Source: Octopus vulgaris
Lineage: Eukaryota
NCBI GenBank assembly: GCA_951406725.2
Contig: OX597819.1
Span: 132,246,001-132,310,000 of the forward strand
Length of the DNA stretch: 64,000 nucleotides
Reading direction: 5' to 3'
Made by a program: the position numbers and the translations under genes. This document shows positions 987 through 63,472 of this stretch, in pieces; within the stretch, counting starts at the first letter, position 1; each line of letters opens with the position of its first letter. The notes below the pieces were generated by a model, which was given only the letters and a program-made list of their open reading frames with translations, was not told where the DNA came from and did no database searches.

Positions 987-2273
987 TGCGTGCGTGCTTG
1001 AGTGTCTGTTTAAAAAAATGGTAAGTTCTGAAAATCCGGTTCGTATTCACATAATACCTAGAATATTTTTTTCATTGTGGTTTAAATGAAGATATTGTTG
1101 AGCTAAGAAGAATAAATAGATATTTTTTTTTGTATCCCAGTCACGTTTTTATTCGTCCATTCAAGTCTGTTATAGCATTAACTCCTTCAAGCACCGAGCT
1201 ATATTTTTACTCTTGTTATTATCATTGAAAGAAACGCAAACAGACGTTGATTTTCATATAAAAAAAAAACTTATTACAGCAAAGCAGAGCCAGGAAGATT
1301 TTTTCTGAAATGCACAAACTAAGTGGCTGTTATTTATATATTAAAAAAGAGACTTTACAATCGATTTCCGTATTCGATCTTCATTTAAGCGAGAATGCAT
1401 TTTCTTTATAAAAATACTAATCGATAGTTTTACATCCTTGACCTATTCTTCATTTTCTCGAGGACATTTTAGAATGAGAATTCTTCGTTTTTGTCTGGAT
1501 CTACTTTAAGCATCTTTTAACTGAAAATGTTCGTCTTGCCAAGTTTTTTTTCTCTTCTACATTTTCCTTATTATTCCGCTGCAGCCTATCTCGTTAAACA
1601 GAACCAAATATTTCTTTACTTAGCGATGCCAACCATTTTCAAGTTTTTCACCTATTATTATTATATCTTGATGCCAATCTTAATAAATGTTAAGAAATTT
1701 TCGTATATCTTAACCAAATTTAATAAGAAGGAATTCTAAACAAAATTTTCAAGTTATTGTAAAAACAAAATTCAATTTTCCACTACTTAGAAGCCTATGT
1801 TTTTTTAAAATTCTAAAATCATATCTGGTGATTTTGATTCTTGTGTTTCCAAATGAATTCTAAGACCACATTTCTTCTTTATTTTTCAGATATTAATTCT
1901 TTTTAAAATGATTCGTTTTACCAAATATTTCAGCAGTGTTTTCTCCAAACCTTACACAGCGGCGCTGTTCTTGTGCAAGATGTCACAGCGAACAGCAGTT
2001 TCTTCCTGATTCAATAAAATGGTAATAATCTTTTAGAATTACTTATTTATGAGAAAAGTCGAAACCAAATGTCTTGAAGAGCTTAGGTCCTTCTCCGCTA
2101 AATTCCAGGTTCAAATCATGTTGGGGTCGATATTATTTTCCGTTTATGAAATAAATAAGGGTCATTGATACCCTGGGTCACTTTAAACCCCTGAAACCCT
2201 TCACTTACAGAGTGAATCCCGGAAATTATTGAAACATTGGCCAAATCTTCGTTTTGCATTACTCTCTCTTTTA

Positions 2274-2657
2274 TCTTTTACTTGTTTCAAACTGTGGCCA
2301 TGCTGGGGCACCGCCTTGAGAAATTTGAATCGAGTGGATCGACCTCAAATTTTTTTAAAAGCCTAGTGCTAATCCTATCGGCTTTTTTTGACGAACTGCT
2401 TAGATACGGGGACGTAAATACACCAACACCGGTTGTCAAGCGATGGTGGTGGTGGTGATGGGGGACAAACTCAGATACAAAGACACACATTCACGCATAC
2501 ACACGATAGGCTTCTTTCAGTTTCCATCCGCTAAATCCACTCACAAGGCTTTGGTTTGTCCGAGGCCTTGGTAGAAGACACTTCCTTAAGGTACCATGCT
2601 GTAGACTGAACCCAGAACCATGTGGTTGGGAAGCAAGCGTCTTACCACACAGCCACT
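2274..2657 (-). mobile_element. tRNA-derived SINE, family A (octopus-type SINE)
   Basis: tRNA-like head on - (GTGGCTGTGTGGTAAG...GGTTCAGTC) and 3' tail GGCGGTGCCCCAGCATGGCCACAG...GAAACAAGTAAAAG. Homologous copies at 33095-33270, 46863-47070 and 51663-52012. Confidence 0.85.
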
Positions 2658-3351
2658 TGTGTTACATTTTTAGCAACAATGCTGGTAAATATTCCAGAGT
2701 TTTGTCAATATTCTTTCTTGTTAGACTAGAAAAAGTCTGGCAAGTGAGAGCAATGAACCATGACAAACCCCCGTGTACCCAGGTAATTAACTGATATTCA
2801 AGGTGGAGTATGGCATAAAGAGAACTAAGAAAACACCGGGTTACTAATTTCACTTTATAAGTGACCCTCTTCGTTTTTAATTCACTTTCTGTAGCAGTCG
2901 ACTTTGATTTTCATCTCCGAAGTTGGTAAAATAAGTTCTAGTATGAAGTGGGATCGATTGAACAACAATATTTCTTCTTCTTTATCAATTTGGTTTCGTG
3001 CCAAATACAAGAAATCAATGTTGCAAAAACAGTTGAACAGTTAATGCTTCTAATCTTGAGGTCATCAAACAACGGAAACAGACGACCAAATAATCATTCT
3101 CCATACTTAATTCTCGCCTGGAAATGTTTTCAAAGCTACCCTCCTTCCATGTAGAGTAAAGAGAGTAGCCATTATAATCCTGTACAACATCAGATCCGGC
3201 GAGATAAAATTATTTAGAGTCAGTCGCCAGTTTTTGAATGTCTAACATGGCGGTTTGTAATCGTTACTCGAACAACGCTGTGACTTCATTTCCGGTCTGG
3301 ATGTTGTCAGATTAAAATAACTCTGGACAGACATTGTCACTGTATTGTTAA

Positions 3352-5515: not shown

Positions 5516-5780
5516 ATGTATATATATATATATTTATATATATACATACATATATATGTGTGTGTACACGCATACACACACTTAAACACACATATACATA
5601 CATATATATGTACATATGTGTAGATATCTCTTACTCTTTTACTTGTTTCTGTCATTTGACAGTGGCCATAACATATTCTTTATATATATATTGATTGATT
5701 GATTGATTGATTCTAGTTTCAACTTATGAGCTGTGGCCATGCTGGGGCACCGCCATTTGGTGTTGCTACTTGGTTTCACT

Positions 5781-8000
5781 TCATGGAGGCTTTCTAGCAA
5801 CTGCTATTTGGTGCATGAGAGAGTTCGATGCAGCTGCCCTCATCTGCCCCTCCTGCCGTGAAGTTGGTTCATCTGGGACACCTGACAGGAAGAGATCCAG
5901 CTTCATTTTAAAGACATCTGTATCCACCCCATGCAGGTCTCTCAGGTTCTTCGGGAGGATATTGAAGAGCTGTGGGCCTCGGAAGCCCAGGCTATCACAG
6001 AATCTTGTCCTACATCTTGATGGCAGGTTTGGAGTCCTAGGCACCACGCAGTGGCGCCCAGTTCTGGCATTTGCGTAACTCTCGATGCCAAAGTTCAGGA
6101 CACTTCCCTCCAGGATCTTCCAGATGTATATTATGGCATATCTTTCCCGCCTACGCTCCAGGGAATATAATTTTAATCTCTTGAGTCTTTCCCAGTAGCT
6201 TACATTCTGCATAGAGGCTATCTTCTTTGTGTAGCTTCGTTGGATCGCCTCAAGTTCTGTGATCAACTTGACACTGGATGGTGACCATAGCTGAGAGCAA
6301 TAGTCAAAGTGGCTTAGGACAAGTGTCTTCCAGAGGACCATCATGGTTTCTTGTTCTCTTGTTCTAAAGGTTCTAAGAATCCATCCAGCCAGCCGTCTAC
6401 ATTTCATTGTCAGTTTAGCAACATGTACATGAAAGGTCGCGTCATCACTCATGTGAATACCCAGGTCACGCACTGATTGTGCCTCTGGGATTGCAATCCC
6501 TCCGGGTCCAGTGTATTCATTGGGTATTGCATTCAGTTTTGCATGCTGATAGTATAAAGCTTGAAACTTTCCAGCATTGAACTGCATGCTATTCTTTTCA
6601 GCCCACTTGTATATTTCGTCCAGCTCACATTGCAGGTGTTTAGTGTCCTCAGGGTTCTGTATTGCCTGTGAGACTTTTGTATCATCTGCATAACTTGTGA
6701 TCGTGGCTCTCTGCGTGGCTGAGGGAATGTCTGAGAGGGCCATTATGAACAGTAGTGGTCCCAGAACAGTGCCCTGCGGAACACCGCTCACTATTTGTGT
6801 GTTAATGGAGGTGGCCCCATTGGCTACTACCACCTGACTTCTATCCTTCAGAAAGTCATGAAGCCATTCTCCCAGTTTTCCAACTATGTTGAGATCACGC
6901 AGTTTGTGACATATCATTCCATGATCGACTTTATCAAAGGCCTTTGCAAAGTCGAGATATATCACTTCCACATTTGAGTGGTTGAGCAGCCGTTTCAGCA
7001 CCCAGTCATAGTGTTGTAGGAGCTGAGTTAAACAGCTTCTCCCTGGTCGGAAACCATGTTGGGTGTCGGGCAGCAAGTCATTCTCTTCAAGGAAGGTGAT
7101 CAGCTTCCTTCTGACTATTCGTTCCATGACCTTGCTGATGTGTGAGGTCAGAGAGATAGGTCTATAGTTCTTGGCTTCCGCTCTGCTACCTCCTTTATGA
7201 ATGGGGCATATTTTACCTTCTTTCAGTTTTCCTGGAAGTTTGCCAGCTGCAAGGAAGCTCTGAAAGAGGAACTGCAGTGGTCTTGCTAGGACTCTCTTAC
7301 ATGCTTTTAGGAGGATTGCCGGGAATCCATCGGGGCCAGTAGCTGAGTCTGTTTTCATTTCATCTATAGCCTTGGTTACATCGTCTTCCTTTATATCGAT
7401 GTAATCTATCGTCGCCGCCTCTGATTTTATATCTGCAGTGGTAAAAAAGTCAGTTGGATTGGTGATTTGGAGATGCCCAAGGGGTGGAGTGAAAACACTC
7501 TTGAATTGCTCATTCAGTATTTCACTTACCCTCATTGGTTTTCCTGTAAGTGTGCCATCCTTTTCAAGGAGTGGCCCTATTCTACAGTGCACTGTAGCTG
7601 TTTCTTTGGCATACCTGTAGAAAGCTCTGGGGTTAGATTTTATGTTTTCTATAGCCCAGGCTTCTTTGTCTGCTCTTTCTTTTTCATGGGAGAGTTGCAG
7701 ACATTTTTCGATTTCCAACAGTTTTATTTTTAGGCGGGACTTTTCACTGCTTTCAATCTGTTTGTTTAGGCGATTTGAAAATTTCGTACGCCGTCTCATT
7801 AAAATTTTCCTCTCTCTGGGGATTTTGTTCTTGTGTACAGTGGCCTTTCTCTCTGGGACACATTTGTAGCATATGGCTTGCATTACAGACATGAATTGTT
7901 GAAGTTTCACGTCGATGTCTGGCGAGGAGAGACATTCAGGCCAGTTTTGTTTGAGGATCTCTTTCTCAATTTGTTTCCAGTTTGCCTTATGGTAGTTCAA
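5781..8000 (-). CDS. LINE ORF2 reverse transcriptase part
   Basis: Motifs GPDG, NYRPISLTS, QHGFR, YLDFAKAFDKVDH, GVPQGTVLGP, YADDTK and C-terminal SLERRRERY. A single frameshift near 8000-8020 separates it from the APE part. Confidence 0.95.
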   Translation of the reverse strand: MNYHKANWKQIEKEILKQNWPECLSSPDIDVKLQQFMSVMQAICYKCVPERKATVHKNKIPRERKILMRRRTKFSNRLNKQIESSEKSRLKIKLLEIEKCLQLSHEKERADKEAWAIENIKSNPRAFYRYAKETATVHCRIGPLLEKDGTLTGKPMRVSEILNEQFKSVFTPPLGHLQITNPTDFFTTADIKSEAATIDYIDIKEDDVTKAIDEMKTDSATGPDGFPAILLKACKRVLARPLQFLFQSFLAAGKLPGKLKEGKICPIHKGGSRAEAKNYRPISLTSHISKVMERIVRRKLITFLEENDLLPDTQHGFRPGRSCLTQLLQHYDWVLKRLLNHSNVEVIYLDFAKAFDKVDHGMICHKLRDLNIVGKLGEWLHDFLKDRSQVVVANGATSINTQIVSGVPQGTVLGPLLFIMALSDIPSATQRATITSYADDTKVSQAIQNPEDTKHLQCELDEIYKWAEKNSMQFNAGKFQALYYQHAKLNAIPNEYTGPGGIAIPEAQSVRDLGIHMSDDATFHVHVAKLTMKCRRLAGWILRTFRTREQETMMVLWKTLVLSHFDYCSQLWSPSSVKLITELEAIQRSYTKKIASMQNVSYWERLKRLKLYSLERRRERYAIIYIWKILEGSVLNFGIESYANARTGRHCVVPRTPNLPSRCRTRFCDSLGFRGPQLFNILPKNLRDLHGVDTDVFKMKLDLFLSGVPDEPTSRQEGQMRAAASNSLMHQIAVARKPP

Positions 8001-8884
8001 GCTGGAAAGATTTTGAGGTTTCTTGTAGGCTGCATGTCCGTGCTCTCTTTTGGCCCGTACATGGTCAGCTCTATCATGTTGTGATCCGAGAGTAGTGTCG
8101 GTGTCACTTTCACATTATGGATGAGATCCATGTCATTTGTGAAGCAGAGATCCAGTGTGTTACCTGCCCTGGTTGGTTGGAGTATTACCTGCTCCATGTA
8201 CAGGGTGTTGATGAGGTTCAGGAGGGACCTCGCCTGTCCTCGTTCACATCTTGTCATTCCTGGGAGAGAAAGGCCCTCGGGCCATCTGACATTGGGCAGA
8301 TTGAAGTCTCCCATAAGAAGCACACCTATGTGTTGTTCTAATGTGGTTAGAATTTCTTCTATTTTTATAAGGCAGTCTTCGAACTTGCCCACATGGCTTG
8401 GGGCATCTGGAGGGCGATATGTAGCACACACAACTACATCAAGTTGCCTAATATGTACAATTAGTGTGTCACACACCGAGTTTGAGTATGACAAGAGGAC
8501 CTGGGGTGTGAGGTCCTCACGGATGTACATAGCAACACCTCCATGACTCCTTTCTTTCCTGTCGGTCCGTAGTACAGCATACTGTGGTATGTGTAACTCC
8601 GCATCTGCTATGTCCGGTTTCAGGTGCGTTTCTGTAAGTGCTATGCATAAGGCTTGATTGCATGCAACAAAGTCTCTCAGGAACGGGATCTTTGTCCTGT
8701 TACTGAGTGTTTGCAGTCCTCTGATGTTCAGTAGGAGTATCGAGGTGAGGTGTACGTTGTTACCGGCGGTGTCCATCCTGTGTCTGTTTGCTGTGGTGGT
8801 CTGGTATATAGTGGGTAGTCCAACCTGCGGGCTTGGGTTTGATGAAGCCAGGTCAGCTGCTGTACAATCTTTTGTGCCATGCAC
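7997..8884 (-). CDS. LINE ORF2 N-terminal part: apurinic-like endonuclease (frameshifted relative to RT)
   Basis: Motifs LNIRGL, ALTETHL, HGGVAMY, YRPP, GDFNLP, LDLCF, SDH. Confidence 0.9.
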   Translation of the reverse strand: MHGTKDCTAADLASSNPSPQVGLPTIYQTTTANRHRMDTAGNNVHLTSILLLNIRGLQTLSNRTKIPFLRDFVACNQALCIALTETHLKPDIADAELHIPQYAVLRTDRKERSHGGVAMYIREDLTPQVLLSYSNSVCDTLIVHIRQLDVVVCATYRPPDAPSHVGKFEDCLIKIEEILTTLEQHIGVLLMGDFNLPNVRWPEGLSLPGMTRCERGQARSLLNLINTLYMEQVILQPTRAGNTLDLCFTNDMDLIHNVKVTPTLLSDHNMIELTMYGPKESTDMQPTRNLKIFPA

Positions 8885-9507
8885 AAAAAAGATTGTTGCT
8901 CAGCAGCTGCTCTTTCGACAACATCATGTTGGCTGTTTGTGGCGCGCACAACATCTGCGTACCTCCGCTTTGGGGCAGGTGGTGCGTAGTCCATCCCTTT
9001 TCTTTGTGTTGATGGTTTGTCCATCTGCCTCGTGTCTCTGTGGCAGGGTCCCCGATGTGCAAAGCGGCAGCCTGCACCTTCCTTTCCGTGCCAGCAGGAA
9101 CCTCTCAGGTAGAACATACACACCCGTGTGCGCTGTTTGGTTCCATCCTTTGCGGTTCCACTTCTACTCCTGGTTGTTTCACTCTTTGGTCCTGCTTGAG
9201 CTTTTTCTTTTCCTTTAGCTCTTCCAGTCCTTCTTTTAGTTCTTCTTCCTCCCTCTACCTCTTCACCGGGTTCTCCGTCTCCATGGCCCTTGCTGCCGGT
9301 TGGAGAACTTGCACCTGGGTTCACTTCCCGGGCAGGTTTCTCATTCAAAACCTCCTCCTGGGCGTCCACCAGGTGGGGGTGACTTCTTTCATCGTCTCCA
9401 TTCTTGCCATCTTTGCCCCGCTCGTTCTCAAAGATGGCATCAAGTGCGCCAATGTGCGACCGTACAAGCGCATATGAGCGCACGAATTCCTGTCTCTTTC
9501 GCTCCAT
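8728..9507 (-). CDS. LINE ORF1 with CCCH zinc finger
   Basis: First plausible ATG at 9507 (MERKRQEF...). Motif CMFYLRGSCWHGKEGAGCRFAH (C-x7-C-x8-C-x3-H) is preceded by a basic region. The upstream YI repeat in the ORF track is (TA)n readthrough. Confidence 0.75.
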   Translation of the reverse strand: MERKRQEFVRSYALVRSHIGALDAIFENERGKDGKNGDDERSHPHLVDAQEEVLNEKPAREVNPGASSPTGSKGHGDGEPGEEVEGGRRTKRRTGRAKGKEKAQAGPKSETTRSRSGTAKDGTKQRTRVCMFYLRGSCWHGKEGAGCRFAHRGPCHRDTRQMDKPSTQRKGMDYAPPAPKRRYADVVRATNSQHDVVERAAAEQQSFLCMAQKIVQQLTWLHQTQARRLDYPLYTRPPQQTDTGWTPPVTTYTSPRYSY

Positions 9508-9568
9508 CTGAGCCGCTGTCCTCTTGTAGCCTCTGCTCTTCAGCGCAGCCGCAATCACCTCGCTAGGG

Positions 9569-9666
<98 letters not shown>

Positions 9667-11695: not shown

Positions 11696-12773
11696 TCTAC
11701 TTCAGAAGGAAGGAAAACTGATACAAATAGCGGCAAAACACGAGCAAAACAAAAAAACTGTTCTCAGTATTTAAGGAAGCTGACAAATACAAACAAGAAA
11801 TCATACCACCTAATAAATATGAAGAAGAAGAAGATGAAGAAACAACAAAAGCTATAAAACAAATGAAATCCAAACTAAAACTAGAACAGCAACGAACCAT
11901 GATAAAACGATGGCAAGAAAAGCCCCTTCATGGTAAATACTGGACTAAACTAAACGCAAAAGAAATAGACAAAGAAAAATCCCAGCAATGGTTGAGAAGC
12001 TCAGGACTCAAAGCAGAAACAGAGGGATTTTTAATTGCAGCACAAGACCAAAGCCTCCCCACCAGAAATTACCAAAAACATGTAATGAAAAGAAATATAA
12101 CAAGTAACTGCAGAATATGTGGAGATGGACAAGAAACAATAAATCATATTATCTCTAGCTGCCCAGTCCTGGCTAAGAAGGAATATATTCACAGACATGA
12201 CAGAGTTGGAACCTACATACATTAGAAGCTATGCCAACATTATGGAATAACAACAGAAAAAAGATGGTATAGGCACACACCAGAAAAGGTCACAGAAAAC
12301 GAGAAAGCAACCATACTCTGGGATATGCCGATACACACAGATAGAGAAATTAAGGCCAACAGACCAGATATAGTTATCAGGGATCAAGAAGAAAAAATGC
12401 TTTCTAATTGATGTATCAATACCGGCAGATGACAATGTGTCTCTAAAAGAAATGGAGAAACTTTCAAAATACAAAGACCTGGAAATAGAGGTAACCAGAA
12501 TGTGGAATCTAAAAACAGAAACAATCCCTCTCATAGTAGGTGCATTAGGCATGATAAAAAAATATTCAGACAAATACATAACAAAAACACCAGGACTTAC
12601 AAACACATATAACATACAGAAAATTGCACTACTAGGCACTGCACACATCCTACGCAGAACACTTTCCATACAATAACCATCAGAGCATCACAACAAATCA
12701 CAGCACATACCCAAGGCACACAGAGCTGCGCTCGGTAGTGAAGTGAAAGCACGCTATAAAAATAAAACTACTG
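11695..12773 (+). mobile_element. 5'-truncated Dong/R4-like RLE LINE inside (AAT)n
   Basis: Zinc knuckle CRIC...HIISSC, RHD, and RPDIV...LIDVSIP...K..KY restriction-like endonuclease motifs, with one stop (12223) and a frameshift. (AAT)n at 11582-11694 and 12774-12883. Confidence 0.93.
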
Positions 12774-14814: not shown

Positions 14815-15123
14815 CATCATTTTAAATCATATTGGACCTTAGCAACCTCGGCGGGGATCTGGCGCAGCCTAACAACAAACTCACTGCCAAATGTTTCAAA
14901 TTGCTGAAAGAAATTTGCTGTCAACGATCAGGAAAAATCCCATTTGTATTCGGCAAGATCGATTCCATCTTGCCGAATCATATTTTCATAAGTGCAATGA
15001 ACAGAGGCCATTAAACCATTTAATCCAGAGAATATGACCCGGAAAATCGGAAATTTATTGTTGTAAACAATACAAGGAATTCTGAATAAAAAATGTCAAA
15101 AATGAAATATAGTAAACTTTTAA

Positions 15124-15175
<52 letters not shown>

Positions 15176-15660
15176 CACAGAAAACGAGAAAGCAACCATA
15201 CTCTGGGATATGCCGATACACACAGATAGAGAAATAAAGGCCAACAGACCTGATATAGTTGTCAGAGACCATGAAGAAAAAAAATGCTATCTAATTGATG
15301 TATCAATACCGGCTGATGACAACGTGTCTCTAAAAGAAATGGAGAAACTCTCAAAATACAAAGACCTGGAAATAGAGGTAACTAGAATGTGGAATCTGAA
15401 AACAGAAACAATTCCTATCATAGTAGGTGCATTAGGCATGATAAAAAAATATTCAGACAAATACATAACAAAAACACCAGGACTTACAAACACATATAAC
15501 ATACAGAAAATTGCACTACTAGGCACTGCACACATCCTACGCAGAACACTTTCCATATAATAATCATCAGAGCATCACAACAAATCACAGCACATACCCA
15601 AGGCACACAGAGCTGCGCTCGGTAGTGAAGTGAATGCACGCTATAAAAATAAAACTACTG
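15176..15660 (+). mobile_element. Second, near-identical 5'-truncated copy of the same RLE LINE inside (AAT)n
   Basis: Aligns by eye almost base for base with 12291-12773 and has the same 3' end ...AAAACTACTG|AATAAT. (AAT)n on both sides. Confidence 0.93.
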
Positions 15661-17237: not shown

Positions 17238-17858
17238 TATAACAAGCTTCCTTGCTCCTTATTACAAGTTGTGGCGACACGATCAGGTAGCGAAAGTGCT
17301 ACATTGGAAACTGAGCGAAAAGTGGGGACTCCAGAGAGAGAGAGAGGGGCAAGACGTGGTATGAGCACCAACTGCAGAGAATGGCGGAGTTGGAGACTAG
17401 CAAAATCCTCTGGGATTTCCCATCCAAACGGATCAAGTGCTAGAGCATAACAGACCGGACCTATTAGTGGTGGACAAGGTGCACCACATATGCTATATAG
17501 TTGATGTTGCATGTCCCTTTGACCCACGAATAGTCAAGAAGGAAGGCAAAAAAAAAAAAACAGATGAGCACAACCCTCTTCAGTACGAAATGGAAAATGA
17601 AGAAGAGGAAGATAGTGCCAATTATTGTTGGGTTTTTGGGGACAGTATCAGAAGGCATCAAGGGGAATATCAAGGAAATTGGAATAGAGTGTCTAGTAGA
17701 ACTGTTACAAATGGTTTGCCTCCTTGGTACACCCAGAATAATCAAGGAAGAATTGGATATCTGAAAAGAACGGATAGCATGGTACCGTAGGCTGCAGGTA
17801 GAAAGCCCGTTACGCATGCAAGATGCCAGGAGTTCCAGCAAAACCTGTGATAAAAAGA
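17238..17858 (+). mobile_element. RLE LINE fragment (distinct family) whose 3' end runs into (AAT)n
   Basis: RHDQVAKVLHWKL...KILWDF...HNRPDLLVVDK...IVDVACPFD...VPIIVGFLGTV, with frameshifts. Confidence 0.85.
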
Positions 17859-17921
<63 letters not shown>

Positions 17922-17931
17922 GATGATGATG

Positions 17932-17978
<47 letters not shown>

Positions 17979-17982
<4 letters not shown>

Positions 17983-18810
17983 GCAGAGAGCGAAGGTTTC
18001 ATCCTGGCTGCTCAAGATCAAAGCCTATTAACCCGGAACTACCAGGTCAATGTGATGAAAAATGGAGCAGACCCAAAATGCCGATTCTGCAACGACATGA
18101 TTGAAACAGAGGACCACCTAATCTCTGGATGTAAAGTCTTAGCACCAGTGGAGTATAAATTAAGACATGACAGAGTTGTCCAATATCTCCACTGGCTAAT
18201 AAGTCGGCATTACAATATCAAAACTGCCGACAAGTGGTATAATCACCACCCTGAGGCTGTAACTGAAGGAGAAAATGTAACCATTCTGTGGGACTTTCCA
18301 GTACATACAGACCGAACCATCAAAGCCAATAAACCAGATATTGTTGTGAAAGACCAAAACAATAAAGTTTGCTTATTGATCGACATGAGCATCCCCTGTG
18401 ATCATAATATCTCGGCGAAAAGAGTTTGACAAGCTCAGAAAATATAAAGACCTGCCCATTGAAATTGAGAAAATGTGGCATCTCAAGGCGATTACAATAC
18501 CAGTGATCGTAGGAGCACTAGGAATGATCAAGAAGGGAACCGAAAATTACATGAGAATGATCCTTGGCTTACCATCCCTGCAAGAAGTGCAAAAGATTGT
18601 CTTAACTGGTACATCACACGTATTGAGAAGAGCATTGTCGATGTGAGAACTATTACTACCCATGTATTTTAATTTAACTTAAAAAAAAAATGAACGAACT
18701 AGTGAGTTTAGTTTAATAGCTACCAATGTATACTATGAGTCTGCCCTAGGAGTCGGGAAGACACTCAGCAAGAAATGGAAGCAAATTTGAAAGAAGAGGA
18801 AAAAAAAAGA
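17979..18810 (+). mobile_element. RLE LINE fragment (further family) inside (AAT)n
   Basis: AESEGFILAAQDQSL, CRFC...HLISGC, RHD, KPDIVV...LIDMSIP, LTGTSHVLRRALSM*. (AAT)n at 17859-17978 and 18811-18868. Confidence 0.92.
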
Positions 18811-29058: not shown

Positions 29059-29595
29059 AAGGGTGAAAAGGAATCTGTCCAAAGACTTCTTGAACCCTAT
29101 AGGGTCTGTTTCTGTTTTAATGTGTTTTGGTGTAATGTTAAAGAGAGCGGGGCCAATTGAGGTGAAATAATTGTGCCGTATTGTTGTTATGAGATGAGAG
29201 TGCGATTTTTGTTTTGGGCGGATGGCACGGGGCCCAAGCCTTGGATGTACCTTAAAGGTGATGCCAACATCATTTGGGCAATGCTGATGGAATATTTTCC
29301 ACATCATGCAGATGGTGTAGCGCTCACGGCGACGTTGGAGAGAATAAAGTTTTAGCTTTTCTTGTCGACCCCAATAGTCGAGGCCTGTCATGCCATCTAT
29401 CTTTTTTGTGATTGCCCTTTGAGGTGCTTCAACTTTTATGATACTTTGTTTTGTGTGGGGAGACCACAGTGGACAACAGTATTCAAGGTGGGGTCGGGCA
29501 AAAGTGGAGAAGAGAAGGATAATGGTGTGGATATCTCTCGACTGGAAAGTTCTGAGAATCCAGGAACACATTCTGCGGGCCATGTCAACTTTGGT

Positions 29596-33094: not shown

Positions 33095-33270
33095 TGTCCC
33101 ACCACTATTTGATAACGACCCGTAACTTAGTGGTTCAGCAAAATAGACCGATAGAATAAGTACCGGGCTTAAAAAATAGTTCTGGGATCGATTCACTAGA
33201 CTAAGAGTCATTGAAGGCGGTGCTCCAGCATGGCCGCAACCTAATGCCTGGAACAAGTAAGTAATAAAAA
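33095..33270 (+). mobile_element. SINE family A, 3' part
   Basis: CCGTAACTTAG.GGTTC.GCAAAA.AGACCGATAGAATAAGTAC...GGCGGTGCTCCAGCATGGCCGCA. Confidence 0.85.
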
Positions 33271-33284
33271 GATCATAATGATAT

Positions 33285-34018
33285 TCTTTTCTACTTTAGG
33301 CACAAGGTTTGAAATTTTGGGGGAAGGGGGCAGTTGATTAGATCGACCCCAGTATGCAACTGGTACTTAATTTATCGACCCCGAAAGGCAAAGTCGATCG
33401 CGGCGGAATTTGAACTCTAAACGTAGCGGCAGACGAAATACCTATTTCTTTACTACCCACAAGGGGCTAAACATAGAGAGGACAAACAAGGACAGACAGA
33501 CGGATTAAGTCGATTATATTCACCCCAGTGCGTAACTGGTACTTAATTTATCGACCTCGAAAGGATGGAAAGCAAAGTCGACCGCGGCGGAATTTGAACT
33601 CAGAACGTAGCGGCAGACGAAATACCTATTTCTTTACTACCCACAAGGGGCTAAACACAGAGGGGACAAACTAGGACAGACAAACGGATTAAGTCGATTA
33701 TATCGACCCCAGTGCGTAACTGGTACTTAATTTATCGATTCCGAAAGGATGAAAGGCAAAGTCGACCACGGCGGAATTTGAACTCAGAACATAAAGATAG
33801 ACGAAATACCTATTTCTTTACTACCCACAAGGGGCTAAACACAGAGGCAACAAACAAGGACAGACAAAGGTATTAAGTCGATTACATCGACCCCAGTTCG
33901 TAACTGGTACTTAATTTATCGATTCCGAAAGGATGAAAGGCAAAGTCGACCCCGGCGGAATTTGAACTCAGAACATAAAGATTGACGCAATACCGCTAAG
34001 CATTTCGCCCGGCGTGCT
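33285..34018 (-). repeat. SINE family B with internal tandem amplification (184-bp period, about 3.5 units)
   Basis: CCTATTTCTTTACTACCCACAAGGGG starts at 33441, 33625 and 33809. There is a single tRNA head at about 33965-34018. Confidence 0.9.
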
Positions 34019-39160: not shown

Positions 39161-41240
39161 ATGGCAGTGAACGCTGCAACCACTTGCGATAACAGCACTG
39201 TCACCACCACCACTAACAACAACAACAACAAGACTACTACTGCTACCACCACCGCCTCCACCACCACCACACCACCACCACCGCCACCTCAGCCACTACC
39301 TCAACTACCAACAACAACAACAATAACAATGACAACAAGAATAATAACTTTTTCACCACCATTTCGACATCTGCTGCCACGGCTGTCTCTTCTGCCACTG
39401 ACACCACCGCCAACAACAAAAACAACAATAACAACAACAACTTTCCCGTTCAGACCTTGTCTCCTCCAACAACAAGAACTGAAGGGAATAAACAAAAGAC
39501 TGTGACCACCAAACAAATTGACAAAAGCTGCTTGAATACAGGGATAAACTATGCAAGTAATTTTCCACCCCTTCCTACTTGCACAATCAAACCAAATACA
39601 CCGATTTTACCAACTGCAGCCAACAACAACATCACCACCAGCAACAACAATAACAAAACAACAACAAATTTCGCCGAGGCGATAAAAGAAAAAAAGACAA
39701 CAGTATATTTTACTGCACAACAAATAAAAGACACGAACATTTCAATAACAGAAGTAGATGGTATAGTAAAAATAAATATACCACAAGAAATATTAGAAGA
39801 TGAAAAAAAAAGAACAATTATATATGAAATAATTAATAAGAAAACAAAAAGTCCAGAGAAGGCTAACACAAGCAAAATAGAAAAATGCTTGAAACCCATC
39901 TGGAACTACAAAGAGTTCGCACACATACAAGTGGTCTTCCACACTGAAGAGTTAGCAAGACGTTTCTCAACGCTAACTCTTCATTCAGATGAACTTCAAC
40001 TAACACCAAGCTATCGTGGACAGAAAGTGACTAAGATCACTTTAAACAATGTCCCAAAAATAGCTAACAATCTATGGCTAGTAAAGGCCTTATGTGTGAA
40101 AATGGAAGATTTCACAATTTTACAAACTACGGTCACGGAGCACAAAAACTGGGTGGGAAAAAAAGTAGAATTTCTACTACATATAAACCAAGAGGACATA
40201 AAGAAAATACCCACCCAGATATGTGTATCAGAAGACCACAAGTTGTATGTGGTCGTCGATGGCAGAAGACCACGTTGCTACATATGCGGCAGTGAGCAAC
40301 ACCTAAAAAAAGATTGCAAATCTGCCGCAAGAAAACAACAGCAACAACAACAGCAACCGGAAAAAACAAATAAACCAGCTTTACTACCCACACCACGTTT
40401 TACACGAACAGGACTAATCACAGAAAATCAACAAAAAACAAACCTCACCAACCAAACAACCACACCAACTGCACCAAGAACAGAAGCAACACCACCAACA
40501 ACAACAACCAAGAATAAACCAACTCCCAAACCAAGGACATATGCCAAAAAGACACTCATCGAAAATGAAGAAACAATTACTACTCCAAATCCCCACAAAA
40601 TTGACACCCCAAACAACAATACCTACAATCACTCAAACACAAAATACCCACACCCCACCTCCAAATCCGCATACACCACAACCTAACGCTCACCAACCAA
40701 CACCAACAACAAAATCAACACAGTCTACAATAGACCCCAATATTTTCCCTCTTCCAAGCTCTGATTCTTCTGATTTGTCATTAGACGAAGAAGACACAGA
40801 AGATTGGCAAATAGCCACAGGGGGGAGAAGAAAAAGGGGAAAAAAAGAAAAGAAAAGATAACAAACAAAGCAGGAAGATTCACCACTCCCGAAACAAAAA
40901 AACATCCACAGAAAACAAACACTTCAACACAAACACACCATCATCAAACCCCCCAACAATGTTGACAGCCATAAACACAAACAACCACGACCTAATGGAA
41001 CACATTAGGTCAAACACCAACATAACTGAAAACGACATAAAAACAAGTAACCACCCACGCACAACACCACCACAACACATTAAAATAATACACGTAACAC
41101 AGAACACATACAGCACCCTGAAATCTCTTTACCCTGATGCAGTAGGGAGATTTCAAAAGTATTCATCAAAGAAACTATACAAAAACCTCATGGAAGAAGA
41201 CTGTGAGGTGAAAAACAAAGGACTTTCGAACCAAAAGTAA
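39161..41240 (+). pseudogene. Tx1 ORF1 (gag-like, CCHC zinc knuckle), broken by frameshifts and stops
   Basis: GRRPRCYICGSEQHLKKDC in ORF 39457-40686, with Thr/Pro/Asn-rich flanks continuing in adjacent frames. Confidence 0.8.
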
Positions 41241-41308
41241 CCTTTTGTCTCTCTCTTTCCTTTTTTGCACTTTCTTTTCGTGTGTAAAACACAATTTTTT
41301 ATCGGAAC

Positions 41309-44300
41309 ATGCTCAGAATAGGCAGTATAAATGTACGTGGCTTGGGGTCGCCTTGGAAACAAGGCTACCTGTTAAATGACATCAAGTCCCTAAATCTGAA
41401 TATCATAGCCATCAGTGAGACCAGACTCCACAGCTTGCGGGCACTCCAGCACAGTTTCGGTACACATTTCAACATTTATTTTTCTCCGTGTCTACCGAGA
41501 ATGGGCGGAGGTGGCACCGCGGTGCTTCTCCGGAAGAGTCTGGATCTCAAAGTAAGAGCAATTTTCCTAGACCCGGAGGGTAGGCTGGTCGTTTTGGATA
41601 TCGATGGCAGCAATGAGTGTGCTTTTCGACTGATAGCAGTTTATGCTCCGTCCTTAACAGGCCGACCAGATTTCTTTCGACGTCTAGAGTCTTTCATGGG
41701 AACGTCTCGTCCTTTACTTTTAGTGGGGATTGGAATGCCACCCTGGACACGCATCTAGACTACGTGGGCAGAGATAGCAATAGAAGGGGATGAAAATGCC
41801 TCAAAGACCTGCTCAGACGTTTCCAACTGTCTGACAGGTACCGACTGGACCACCCGAATGTGCCAATGTGGACATGGAATAACTGCATCGGGTCGTCCAG
41901 ATCATACTTAGATAGAGTATTCTGTAGGACAATAGATAAAAATAGTGTAGGTTGTCCACTATTTCATATAGTCAGTTACACAGATCACAAGTTTGTGACT
42001 TGTACACTTGACTTAGATAAGACACATAGGCAGGGTCCTGGTTACTGGAAACTGAACGCGTCTTTTACAGCACGACAGGTTTACAGGGACCGGATCAGCA
42101 CATTAGTTAAGAGAGCTTTGACGGGTACCATCATCAACAACAGATGGTGGTATGCCCTAAAAAAAGCAATTAAAGCAGAATCAGTCAGATACAGTAAAGC
42201 CCTAGCATTAGACCGAAATAGAATAGAGGGAGAATTAGTTAAGGTTTTAGAAGAGGCACTTAGAACTGGCATTGCGTCCAACGTGCTGGCGGCAAGATTG
42301 GCCCTCGACCAACACCTCAACGCCAAACACGAGGGATGCGTTGTCAGAGCTAGGATGCGTGCTCTGAGGAACGAAGGAGTTGGAGCCGCCCAAGAGGCCC
42401 GAGTGGTGGAGACGCAACGAAGCAACAGAGCCACCATCAAGTCTCTTATAGATGAACAGGGGCGCGAATTGCTCGAGCCTAAAAGGATGTGTGGGGCTTT
42501 TCAACAACACTTCACCCAACTGTTTGGGACAGGTGGTGGGTCAGAACGCAGAGTGGACTTTAGTGCCTACCTGCATGCCTTGCCACGACTCTCAGCAAGA
42601 GAGGTGGAATCTTGTGAAAGGCCTATCACAGCTGCGGACGTACAGGATGCGATGGTAGGCTGCGCGAGAGACAAGTCACCAGGCTTGGATGGTCTGCCCT
42701 ACGAACTTTATTTTCATATGTCAGACTTGTTTGGAGACGTCTTGGCAGCTGTCTACTGCAACTGGCAGCAAAACGGGAGTATTCCTGCTTTTGTAAAGCG
42801 AGGAGCAGTGGCACTGATTAAGAAAGACCCAAACAAGGGGGACGTCATAGATAATTTCAGGCCCATCACTCTGCTCAACGCAGATTTGAAAATTTTGGCC
42901 AAGGTGTTAGCCGAGAGGTTGGCGCTTGTCATCAAGAAACTAATCGACAAGGCGCAAACATGCGCCGTGCCGGGTAGAAGTATTCATGACAACCTCCATC
43001 TGATGCGCTACATCATAGACAGGGTAGTTAAGAATCCTGGCATGGGTGGGGCGCTGATCAATTTGGATCAATCAAAAGCTTTCGATAGGGTAGACCATCA
43101 CTACTTGGAGGCTGTCCTTAAAGCGGCTGGTTTCGGTCCAGTTTTCCGCAGTTGGATCGCTGTCTTATACAGCGGCATCCGCTCAGTAGTTCGCGTAAAT
43201 GGTCATCTATCCAGACCTTTTAACATCATGCGTTCGGTTCGTCAGGGATGCCCCCTCTCATCGCTGCTGTATGTATTGACTCTTGAGCCACTACTGCGGA
43301 AACTGGCGACGCTGAGGGGCATCCCACGAGAGCTGGGATGCGGGAGGAGCGTGTCTGCATACGCGGATGACGTCACCGTTATAGTGTCGAGCTACGAGCA
43401 CATCGAGCTGGTCGGCGAGACACTAAAAGAATACGAAGCGGTAACGGGAGCAAAAATTAACCGGGAAAAGTCAGTGGGCTTGCGGCTCGGCACCTGGAGA
43501 AGCAGGCCCATGCCGTCCAACAGAGTCTCCATCGTGGGACGCTGGACGGACGGACCGGTTAAATTGCTCGGGGTCTGGTTCGGTCCGGACCTCCAAATGG
43601 AGAAGAACTGGGGCGAGATAACGACTAGGGTAGCTACTCTCACCCAGAAATGGGCTGAGAGAAAGCTATCCCTAAAAGGTCGGGCGGAGGTGGCGAACGC
43701 GTACATCGCATCAGTCATCGAGTATCGTCTGACCGTCGTGCCTTGTCCCGACCCTACCATCACCAAACTGGAACGTATACTCTTCCGCTTCTTGTGGAAG
43801 GGAAACGTTCCGATGGTTAGGCGATCCATTTGCTGTCAACACCCGCTAAATGGAGGGCTGGGCATGCCGTGGTTGATGATGCGCAGACATGCGCTGAGAC
43901 TGCGACATCTCCGGTGCTTCATAGACAACGGTGAACAGGTGTGGTCGCCTTTTGTGCGGCGCGCTTTCCCGCAGCTCGTCTCCTTGGACGAACTACAGTC
44001 ATGGATCAAGCAGAGACCGAGGCTAGGCGAATGGCACCGCGAGTGTCGCGTTGCTCTCAAGCAACTCTGCCGTCCGGGATCGAACTTGTGCGACTCCATC
44101 ACAACAAAGGCATTCTATAGAGGATTAGTGGAGGGGAGGTGCGACGACGAACTCGGGCAGAGTCTGGGCGTCGACGAGGAACACCTGACCCGCCTGTTCA
44201 GGACAACTTTCGGGCCGGGACCTATGAACAATCACCAAAGATCCCTGGCCTGGCAGTGCTATCGAGAAGCATTACCTGTTCGGGATAAGCTCTACAGACA

Positions 44301-44745
44301 CGGTTCCAGACACACTGGACCGACTTGTCCGAGATGCGGTCAGAGCGACGAAACCGTTCTGCACGCACTCGTGCAATGTCCAACCATTTCAGACCTGTGG
44401 GCTTATGCCGAACGGCTGCTGTCACGTGTGGGACGAGTCCGCCTGTCGGCCGAGTCTATCATGAGTATTGCTCCGCCCCCTTCCCTCAACCGGGAAGGCA
44501 AGGCAGTTTTCATCGTTCTGGTGGCCATGGTGAAAGAATGTGTGTGGTGGACCCGAGCGAAAGGATTAGAGACAAACACTTACCTCTCTGGCCAATCGCT
44601 CATCAACTTTTTCAAGTACCACTTGAAAAGGAAGGTGAGAATGGAGAGGGAAGTTTTGTCTCGCGAAAGATTCAAAAAAAGATGGGTGAATGTTGTAAAG
44701 ATGGTGCGTGCTAGTGAGGAAACCATTTTGAGCATGAACCTGTAG
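41309..44745 (+). pseudogene. Tx1 ORF2: APE endonuclease, reverse transcriptase and C-terminal zinc finger; frameshift near 41728 and TGA at 41791
   Basis: SINVRGL, AISETR, AVYAP, G(D)WNA, YLDR, TDH, GPGYWKLN, SPGLDGLPYE, FRPITLLN, LDQSKAFDRVDH, VRQGCPLS, YADD, CPRC...HALVQC. 41860-44745 is open. Confidence 0.95.
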
Positions 44746-46853: not shown

Positions 46854-46862
46854 ATACACATT

Positions 46863-47070
46863 ATCTTTTACTTGTTTCAGTCAATAGACTGTGGCCATTC
46901 TGGGGTATTGCATTAAAGAATTTTATTCGAACGACTCAACCTTAATACTTAATTTTTTTTAAAGTCTGATACTAATTAGATCGGTCCTTTTTGCCGAACC
47001 GCTAAGTTACGCGGGTGTAAACACAACAACACCGATTGTCAAGTGGTGGTGAGGGACAAACTCAGACACG
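46863..47070 (-). mobile_element. SINE family A, 3' part
   Basis: Homologous to 2274-2480 and 51663-51860. Confidence 0.8.
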
Positions 47071-51662: not shown

Positions 51663-52012
51663 TCTTTTGCTTGTTTCAATCATTTGACTGCGGCCATGCT
51701 AGAGCACTGCCTTTAGTCGAACGAATCGATCCCATGACTTATTCTTTGTAAGCCTAGTACTTATTCTATCGGTCTCTTTTGCCGAACCGCTAAGTTACGG
51801 ACACGTAAACATACCAGCATCGATTGCCAAGCGATGATGGGGCGGGGGCAAACATAGACACATAAATACACATACATATATATACGGGCTTCTTTCAGTT
51901 TCCGTCTACCAAATCCACTCACAAGGCTTTGGTCGGCTATAGTAGAAGACACTTGCCCAAGGAGCCACGCAGTGGGACTGAACCCGGCACCATGTGGTTA
52001 GTAATCAAGCTT
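51663..52012 (-). mobile_element. SINE family A, near full length
   Basis: B-box GGTTCAGTCCC, CTTGGGCAAGTGTCTTCTAC block and 3' tail GGCAGTGCTCTAGCATGGCCGCAGTCAAATGATTGAAAC. Confidence 0.9.
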
Positions 52013-52019
52013 CTTTATT

Positions 52020-63200: not shown

Positions 63201-63255
63201 GGCGGTGCCCCAGCATGGCTACAGCTCATAAGCTGAAACTAATCAAAATCATCAA
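63199..63255 (+). mobile_element. Ultra-short 3' terminus of the (TA)n-associated LINE
   Basis: ATGGCGGTGCCCCAGCATGGCTACAGCTCATAAGCTGAAACT plus an AATC-type tail is near identical to the reverse complement of 5715-5756. It is preceded by (TA)n and followed by ATATATA. Confidence 0.85.
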
Positions 63256-63472
63256 ATATATACTTTTACATTTTTGTTTAATCTTCTGAATATATTTAGT
63301 TTTGTATCTCTCTCTATTATCGTGTTTATCTGCAACATTATCCGCATTTCAGTTCACCTGGATTCCACTTATTGCCACTCATTATCCCGTGGACATCGAC
63401 TTCGGAGTGTAAGTTCAAATCGTTTGAACACTGCTACGTGTTTTCTATTTCGAACATCTCGAGATCTCAACT

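Follow-up and report, generated by a model that had tools for sequence, protein, structure and literature searches.

In a 64,000-nucleotide stretch of Octopus vulgaris DNA, called here the window, a LINE copy on the reverse strand carries near its 3' end 24 nt (5731-5754) that recur, letter for letter, in an abundant SINE on the same strand (2292-2315). The first-pass annotation took this LINE family, LINE-A, to be the one that drives the SINE, called SINE A. The question raised by the locus is thus where SINE A obtained its tail and which LINE proteins copy it. SINE-LINE tail sharing as such is textbook knowledge. The 24-nt identity is real, with a chance expectation of ~1e-11 in the window. 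As argued below, at least eight LINE families of the CR1 clade end in a predicted two-hairpin tail of 39 nt. We consider it likely that SINE A took this tail from a sister sub-lineage represented by another family, LINE-C, and not from LINE-A, and that SINE A is copied by ORF2 proteins of this clade.

The LINE-A copy and its 3' end

The LINE-A copy extends from 5690 to 9569 (-). It had been described as near-intact; however, it is 5'-truncated at 9569 inside ORF1 (8728-9569, -, with a CCCH/Torus finger), and its ORF2 is split over two frames. The APE endonuclease part (7997-8899, -; PF14529, E 1.4e-12) is not in the frame of the stretch that codes for the linker, the RT and the C-terminal part (5781-8114, -; 777 codons; PF00078, E 1.7e-30). 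A (TA)n array marks the 5' junction (9570-9666). A second copy, which shares 99.8% identity with it over 3.86 kb, has an uninterrupted ORF2, a state found in two of the six long LINE-A copies fetched, and the subfamilies of LINE-A are 93-100% identical to the window copy. An ORF1 upstream of an ORF2 with APE endonuclease and RT is a CR1-type layout, and the closest named homologue of the ORF2 product comes from Argonauta hians (58%). LINE-A can be placed in the CR1 clade indirectly, via a by-eye match to O. sinensis clusters of a published tree. The ORF1s of families A and C also give weak Myb/SANT-like and CCCH matches below the Pfam cut-offs (L379:1032-1841 and L377:1451-2482).

The ORF2 stop lies 26 nt upstream of a predicted hairpin that we called SL1 (5735-5754, -; seven pairs, one G-G mismatch and a 4-nt loop). 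SL1 occupies the first 20 nt of the 24-mer; that the 24-mer itself is predicted to fold in this way had gone unnoticed. A second predicted hairpin, SL2, follows at 5720-5733 (-; CAGCT-CATA-AGTTG, five pairs, one of them G-U, loop CAUA), then AAAC at 5716-5719 and the terminal repeat of the family at 5690-5715 (-; TAG and (AATC)n, with a short (TA)n behind them). The SL2 loop varies among LINE-A subfamilies, being CATA in the window copy and CAAG in another subfamily.

We looked for this tail in other copies. It is present in all of the 30 best LINE-A DNA matches, a set that includes the window copy and was retrieved with a query containing the tail, and also on all eight ORF2 ends found by protein search in a systematic sample of 100 stretches of 10 kb (1 Mb of the 2.8-Gb genome). 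The tail is therefore native to the LINE, and the view that the SINE shares a LINE-derived 3' end with a predicted structure is upheld; the refuting case set out in the first-pass annotation, other full-length copies without the tail, did not arise.

SINE A and the hairpins of its tail

The window contains four copies or parts of SINE A in addition to a remnant described below. The copy at 2266-2659 (-) is of an older type, A2; it has A- and B-box-like motifs in its head and carries the 24-mer at 2292-2315 without SL2. The main type, A1, is found at 51663-52015 (-), with SL2 at 51677-51690. Two 3' parts lie at 46861-47069 (-; SL2 at 46878-46891) and at 33119-33261 (+; SL2 decayed). Directly after the latter, at 33383-33994, there is a 184-nt unit repeated 3.3 times and derived from another common repeat. 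The A- and B-box-like motifs are ~43 nt apart in the head of SINE A and in that of a second element described below, SINE-Z. ARAGORN and Rfam returned no tRNA match for either head, and SINE heads are often missed by tRNA scans. SINE A may well be one of the octopus SINEs OK, OR1 and OR2.

The systematic sample yielded 112 tail-like matches, of which 90 were SINEs, five LINEs and 17 unclassified. Genome-wide, exact ends number 72,695 of SINE type, 6,713 of A-type, tail-only copies and SINE-Z included, and about 535 of C-type, a few of these being SINE variants. SINE A is present at ~100 places per Mb. Scaling by this density, or by the share of exact ends (19 per Mb of sampled sequence), we estimate its copy number at roughly 250,000-400,000.

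A covarying stem-loop had been read from three hairpins upstream of GAAAC, one assigned to the LINE and two to SINE A. All three are present, at 63222-63235 (+), 51677-51690 (-) and 5649-5662 (-), although the last had been placed 4 nt off (at about 5645-5658). The first, CAGCT-CATA-AGCTG, sits in a 57-nt tail-only insertion in (TA)n, and its sequence is not that of SL2 in the flagged LINE-A copy. The third belongs to a decayed 3' remnant of SINE A at 5628-5669 (-), with most of SL1 deleted, a double change in SL2 and a TAAAAGAG-type end. Both quoted SINE hairpins are decayed derivatives of a single stem, CAGTC-AAAT-GACTG. At the pair that differs in them, 214 SINE tails contain one compensated double change, with 0.85 double changes expected, so the differences between the quoted copies are decay. 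Over all five SL2 pairs there is a mild excess, with nine compensated doubles where 4.2 doubles of whatever type would be expected. These 214 in-register tails were kept out of 249 after removal of duplicates and gapped tails, and the remnant is not among them because its 24-mer is deleted. Covariation is shown between families, as described in the next section, but neither by the quoted SINE copies nor within the SINE copies.

The perfect identity between LINE and SINE is itself atypical. None of the 90 SINE tails of the systematic 1-Mb sample has the full 24-nt match (one to six mismatches each), and the copy that has it, at 2292-2315, has lost SL2, the hairpin first quoted, altogether. The part common to SINE A and LINE-A consists of SL1, CAG and GAAAC.

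A predicted two-hairpin tail in at least eight CR1-clade families

Protein searches of fetched loci revealed the same module 3' of the ORF2 stop in families A (several subfamilies), B, C, D, E, F, G and H, in the order SL1, SL2, AAAC and a family-specific repeat. Protein identity is 69% between A and C, over 592 aa, and about 41-42% between A and B. In a tree based on 600 aa, the Argonauta hians protein forms one clade with A, C and D (support 100/100), to which a C-terminal tree adds E, G and H (100/98). The split that places C and H on one side and A, D and E on the other has weak support (81/85 and 81/76). Three fragments under 70 aa were excluded.

LINE-B retains the module in a variant form at 41% identity to A. 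The presence of the module in LINE families as distant as this suggests transfer from LINE to SINE and not the reverse. The window contains a fragment of LINE-B (29060-29577, -; ~41% amino-acid identity to A) without the tail, which other B copies have in its variant form; the SL1 loop is longer there, and the ends consist of (TATCAAAG)n. LINE-B (29060-29577 and L061-L090) has many young copies, and open frames of at least 1,000 codons occur in many of its 150 matches. No SINE with a LINE-B tail was noticed in our samples.

All 17 natural representatives of the tail were predicted to fold into two hairpins. With 13 representatives, B being left out, 97.4% of the cells are paired in one structure, compared with 22-40% in slid controls. 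The covariation score for these 13 is 0.210, a value reached by one of 500 shuffles, and pairs 25-32 and 26-31 of SL2 have changes on both sides. The rows of this alignment are mutually related and were selected by us, with one natural copy per family. SL1 hardly varies and hence has no covariation support; it is near-invariant in A, C, D, E, F and H and in three SINE types, in contrast with the drifting loops and repeats. The folding z-scores of single tails are modest (-1.2 to -2.1). Judging from sequence and predicted structure, a stringent SINE-LINE partnership of the known kind appears to hold at the level of the clade.

Two peculiarities of LINE-C copies may be mentioned here. In one (L337), a 42-nt tail is present as a head-to-tail duplicate, as RT slippage or re-priming would give. 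In two long copies on different contigs (L373 and L377), ORF2 is split at the same place, by shared ancestry or sequencing error.

The tail of SINE A is closest to that of LINE-C

We then compared the ends of SINE A with those of the LINE families. Over the 53-nt end, with one natural copy each, SINE A1 has six mismatches with LINE-C, none of them in the last 14 nt, and 19 with the LINE-A copy of the window; the older A2 type has eight and 17, respectively. LINE-C is the best match among the families sampled in about 1.9-1.96 Mb; rare families may have escaped this sampling. The terminus of SINE A is that of LINE-C, AAACAAG(TAAAAGAG)n, and 87 of 91 sampled SINE ends have the C-type terminal repeat AAG-TAAAAGA, while none has an A-type repeat. 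The SL2 loop is AAAU or YAAU in SINE A, GGAU in LINE-C and CAUA or variants in LINE-A; those of SINE A and LINE-C both end in AU, in contrast with that of LINE-A. The letters upstream of the SINE tail are followed by a LINE-A hairpin in two matches genome-wide, one of which is a true SINE (L252). Thus, the SL2 stem, the loop and the terminal repeat all fit LINE-C better, and the statement that LINE-A drives the SINE is probably wrong. The donor of the SINE A tail was likely a C-type LINE.

The exact SL2 of the SINE was found in none of 199 LINE-class tails (1.96 Mb). A search for the SINE SL2 pattern next to a LINE-type upstream word gave 64 matches, and the 30 that were fetched included no LINE with the SINE loop; they comprise 23 SINE variants, four LINE copies of C, D and F types, two chimaeras and one short SINE end.

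Family H ends in a TAAAAGA-type repeat, as C does. We considered it as direct donor and rejected it for its 3-nt loop and its AAACCC, despite its upstream TAAA and its TAAAAGA repeats. The lone 'H-type' end among the 91 SINE ends is explained by a single substitution.

SINE-Z, a young passenger of the LINE-A lineage

The first 30 A-type ends on one contig (C1) correspond to 14 LINE bodies, of which 12 measure 1 kb or more, 12 tail-only copies and four copies of a short element. This element, SINE-Z, is of tRNA type and ~205 nt long, and its A-type tail is joined at the foot of SL1 to a head and body from another abundant tRNA-type SINE group. In that donor group, 44 of 59 end-reaching matches, a number that includes four SINE-Z loci counted twice, run into other 3' parts. 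At least five different 3' halves are found behind this one body, which has the appearance of a modular, tail-swapping superfamily (L009, L051, L053, L157, L185, L244, L304 and others).

The SINE-Z junction has 692 exact occurrences genome-wide. All ten junction loci fetched (L385-L394, e.g. C1:10351450-10351700) are SINE-Z, with a mean pairwise identity of 99.0%; there is none in the window. The first 39 nt of the tail are those of the CAAG-loop subfamily of LINE-A, and nine of the ten loci keep the exact tail of one A subfamily. The 53-nt end has four mismatches with the CAAG subfamily, 10 with the CATA subfamily of the window and 12 with LINE-C. Judged by its shared tail, its best match and its age, SINE-Z is a very young product of a tail swap and the putative partner of the LINE-A lineage. 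In sequencing data, contigs of four runs cover its head and its tail, with no listed piece spanning the element, and none of the matches listed comes from an RNA run.

Tail-only insertions and single fusions

The hairpin quoted from position 63222 belongs to a tail-only insertion of the LINE-A lineage (63201-63257, +), which consists of SL1, SL2 and the terminal repeat and lies directly after (TA)n. Such insertions are frequent. Of 26 sampled A-type insertions, 12 end 31-49 nt from the 3' end and two between 55 and 1000 nt, a distribution incompatible with a constant stop rate (p ~3e-22); two of these 12 form an inverted duplicate and one is a tRNA fusion (L370). In LINE-C, tail-only copies amount to three of 28 (Fisher p 0.006 versus A). 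Tail-only loci of 31-57 nt that start at the 5' foot of SL1 are 63201-63257, L345-L349, L352-L354, L364, L369, L372, L112 and L148, and three further tail-only copies were seen within a tandem duplication (L026).

The tRNA fusion (L370:1450-1680, -) comprises an intron-containing tRNA (Rfam tRNA, 50 bits), by eye of Leu type, together with its leader, its trailer and an oligo-T; an A-type tail follows, and there is a possible 6-nt target duplication. It is a candidate pre-tRNA-LINE chimaera, or else an insertion beside a tRNA gene. Other single fusions occur at or near the foot of SL1, namely a SINE A body with an A-type tail (L252) and another SINE head with a SINE A tail (L116). In two further loci (L240 and L230), SINE A contains inserted D- or E-type segments.

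We infer that the 5' edge of the bound tail is where reverse transcription terminates or moves to another template. The enzyme may stall there, the RNA may be trimmed back to a protein footprint, microhomology with the AT target may play a part, or the missing sequence may have been deleted afterwards. By analogy with stringent L2 systems, ORF2p would bind the tail hairpins via the region between its endonuclease and its RT, nick AT/TA-rich DNA and prime reverse transcription on the terminal repeat. Near-invariant SL1 might be a clade-wide handle, with SL2 and the repeat as the family-specific part.

On this basis, we tentatively propose that the octopod CR1 tail might serve as a nursery for SINEs. 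The RT would stop or jump on reaching the 5' foot of SL1, which probably marks the limit of the ORF2p footprint. The bare 31-49-nt module would thereby be inserted by the thousand and repeatedly grafted onto Pol III RNAs. Its stages would be tail-only inserts (12 of 26), single grafts (the intron-containing tRNA, SINE A bodies and another SINE head), then SINE-Z (1% old, ~700 copies), and finally SINE A, with some 250,000-400,000 copies. If this is true, the eight or more families that coexist, all differing in hairpin and repeat, form a natural matrix for the recognition code between CR1-clade ORF2p and RNA.

Ages, insertion sites and the proteins that copy SINE A

An age comparison, as suggested in the first-pass annotation, gave a divided answer. 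Young SINE A copies are 97.4-99.7% identical to their majority (n=30) and overlap in age with LINE-C, as all 26 C-type copies listed in order of position are 98.5-100% identical to a young copy; the exact C pattern is biased towards young copies, and no older LINE-C layer was seen among these 26. In contrast, most SINE A copies are older than the LINE-C copies seen, the median divergence over 160-nt 3' segments being 5.7% for A1 (n=59) and 19% for A2 (n=31). That LINE-C is young and has about 535 exact ends while SINE A is older counts against LINE-C as the partner. In addition, none of six long LINE-C copies has a complete uninterrupted ORF2, one being open from mid-endonuclease to the end. 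Family H has a fitting age (8.8% divergence, best matches only) and a related end, and the LINE-A lineage is more abundant than LINE-C and partly older.

The terminal repeat would record the donor of the tail and not necessarily the enzyme that copied it later. We regard LINE-C as the likely driver of the young SINE A copies; candidates for the older ones are forerunners of LINE-C, family H and some relative outside our sample; some mobilisation by proteins of the LINE-A lineage may also have occurred.

Insertion sites differ between SINE A and the LINEs. A TA run follows the 3' end in seven of 30 young and 17 of 91 sampled SINE A copies (random, 8%), versus 25 of 28 for LINE-C (p 3e-7 against young SINE A), 24 of 30 for LINE-A and 24 of 28 for LINE-B; the ranges are 19-23% for SINE A and 57-89% for the LINEs. 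ATA precedes 62 of 80 SINE heads. The lower frequency of SINE A at long TA arrays might reflect selection acting on long copies, or targeting that depends on ORF1.

Three other explanations were weighed against copying by a C-type sub-lineage. According to the first, which is possible though rather unlikely, members of the clade read SL1 and cross-mobilise each other's tails, with SINE A carried by whichever family is active and having no one-to-one partner. The near-constancy of SL1 amid drifting loops and repeats would fit this, as would the span of SINE A, at ~0-30% divergence longer than that of any one sampled family, and the chimaeras of SINE A with D-, E- and A-type segments (L240, L230 and L252). 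However, single chimaeras may also come from recombination, and each family retains its own SL2 and repeat, SINE-Z having kept an exact A-subfamily tail in nine of ten loci. Published stringent LINEs are also family-specific (PMC4176376).

The second explanation keeps the LINE-A lineage as the main driver of SINE A, reading SL1 and any 5-bp SL2 whatever its loop and repeat. LINE-A indeed has far more ends than LINE-C (6,713, with tail-only copies and SINE-Z, versus 535), subfamilies at 93-100% of the window copy and uninterrupted ORF2s (two of six); its SL1 differs from that of SINE A1 at one loop position, its own SL2 loop varies, and one SINE A body has acquired an A-type tail (L252). We nevertheless find this explanation improbable. 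It has to accommodate 19 mismatches in 53 nt, two stem changes that affect both sides, a different loop and repeat, and the lack of A-type ends among 91. Moreover, the A lineage already has a SINE with its exact tail, the ~700 copies of SINE-Z, which spread only after the swap, and in zebrafish, loop swaps abolish ZfL2 mobilisation (PMC4176376).

Finally, a SINE fragment inserted at or captured by the LINE-A end, or a chance match, can be dismissed: the remnant at 5628-5669 does lie 20 nt past the end of the window copy, but it adjoins this one alone of 30 LINE-A copies and hence belongs to the flank, and neither a tail present in 30 of 30 copies and, as a variant of its own, in each family down to 41% identity nor an expectation of ~1e-11 is compatible with such an origin. 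We retain a C-type sister sub-lineage as the likely source of the SINE A tail.

Other non-LTR elements of the window

A long Tx1/L1-type element with an ORF1-like frame, endonuclease, RT and zf-RVT (39217-44745, +) is unrelated to the tail. Other non-LTR fragments, with zf-RVT and an endonuclease-like C-terminus, lie beside (TAA)n arrays at 11731-12225, 15090-15560 and 17854-18429.

Comparison with known SINE-LINE pairs

SINEs dominate the repeats of octopus genomes (PMC9068888). Several tRNA-derived ones are on record, OK, OR1 and OR2, of which OR1 or OR2 is cited as a CORE-SINE, and the portions of the same articles that we consulted name no partner LINE for them (PMC4824008, PMC4758252 and PMC3531059). 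Table 1 of a 2013 article has no mollusc pair (PMC3747384).

The CR1 assignment stems from Martelossi et al. (2023), in whose tree the O. sinensis clusters 104, 114, 135, 14, 140 and 179 belong to the CR1 clade of the Jockey superfamily (PMC10294476). By eye, over ~120 aa, the RT stretch of LINE-A equals clusters 7, 21, 36 and 54 of that work and is within one to four residues of clusters 104, 135, 140 and 179, while LINE-C matches clusters 114 and 64 and LINE-D clusters 14 and 65. The portions of its text consulted give no 3' tails or SINE partners for these clusters, and the tail motif did not occur in the supplement files searched. In the parts of an octopus genome preprint covered, neither SINE nor CR1 appears as a whole word.

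UnaL2/UnaSINE1 and ZfL2-1/ZfL2-2 likewise end 3' in a stem-loop and, behind it, a short tandem repeat (PMC4176376 and PMC3747384). Unlike the octopus families, UnaL2 and ZfL2 belong to the L2 clade, have one stem-loop and were established by assay. Loop identity decides specificity in zebrafish L2 (PMC4176376), and the model for L2 combines general recognition of the stem with specific recognition of the loop (PMC4176376 and PMC3747384).

A closer likeness is found in bivalves, where CR1-14_CGi, a molluscan CR1-clade LINE, shares its 3' tail with the tRNA SINEs BivaV-SINE2 and BivaCORE-SINE1, that is, two SINEs with different heads on one LINE tail, and where the tails likewise have predicted stem-loops with compensatory changes (PMC4824008 and PMC4758252). 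With CR1-tailed SINEs already known in bivalves, the pairing itself is unsurprising. The bivalve SINE tails printed in the supplement of PMC4824008 bear no likeness by eye to the octopus tail. What sets the octopus system apart from the bivalve one is the tandem arrangement of two hairpins, the coexistence of eight or more families and a tail swap ~1% old.

In the literature searched, no article was found that assigns a partner LINE to an octopus SINE or describes a truncation hot spot at a LINE tail; older octopus-SINE papers, SINEBase, Repbase or Dfam may already record the pairing. The present analysis would name the likely engine of a SINE found at ~100 places per Mb, and it corrects the partner first proposed for it. 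Of more use are the several LINE families that coexist, each with a matching tail, along with the recent tail swap and the tail-only insertions. With these, the proposed origin of SINE tails by template switching can be tested directly, and so can the respective roles of stem and loop in recognition by LINEs of clades other than L2.

In the U6-L1 chimaeras that reportedly arise by template switching, a Pol III RNA is joined to the 3' end of a LINE. SINE-Z, the SINE A body with an A-type tail (L252) and the tRNA-tail fusion (L370) are built in the same way. The octopus junctions differ from them in being concentrated where a structured tail has its 5' foot, and one of the fusions became a family.
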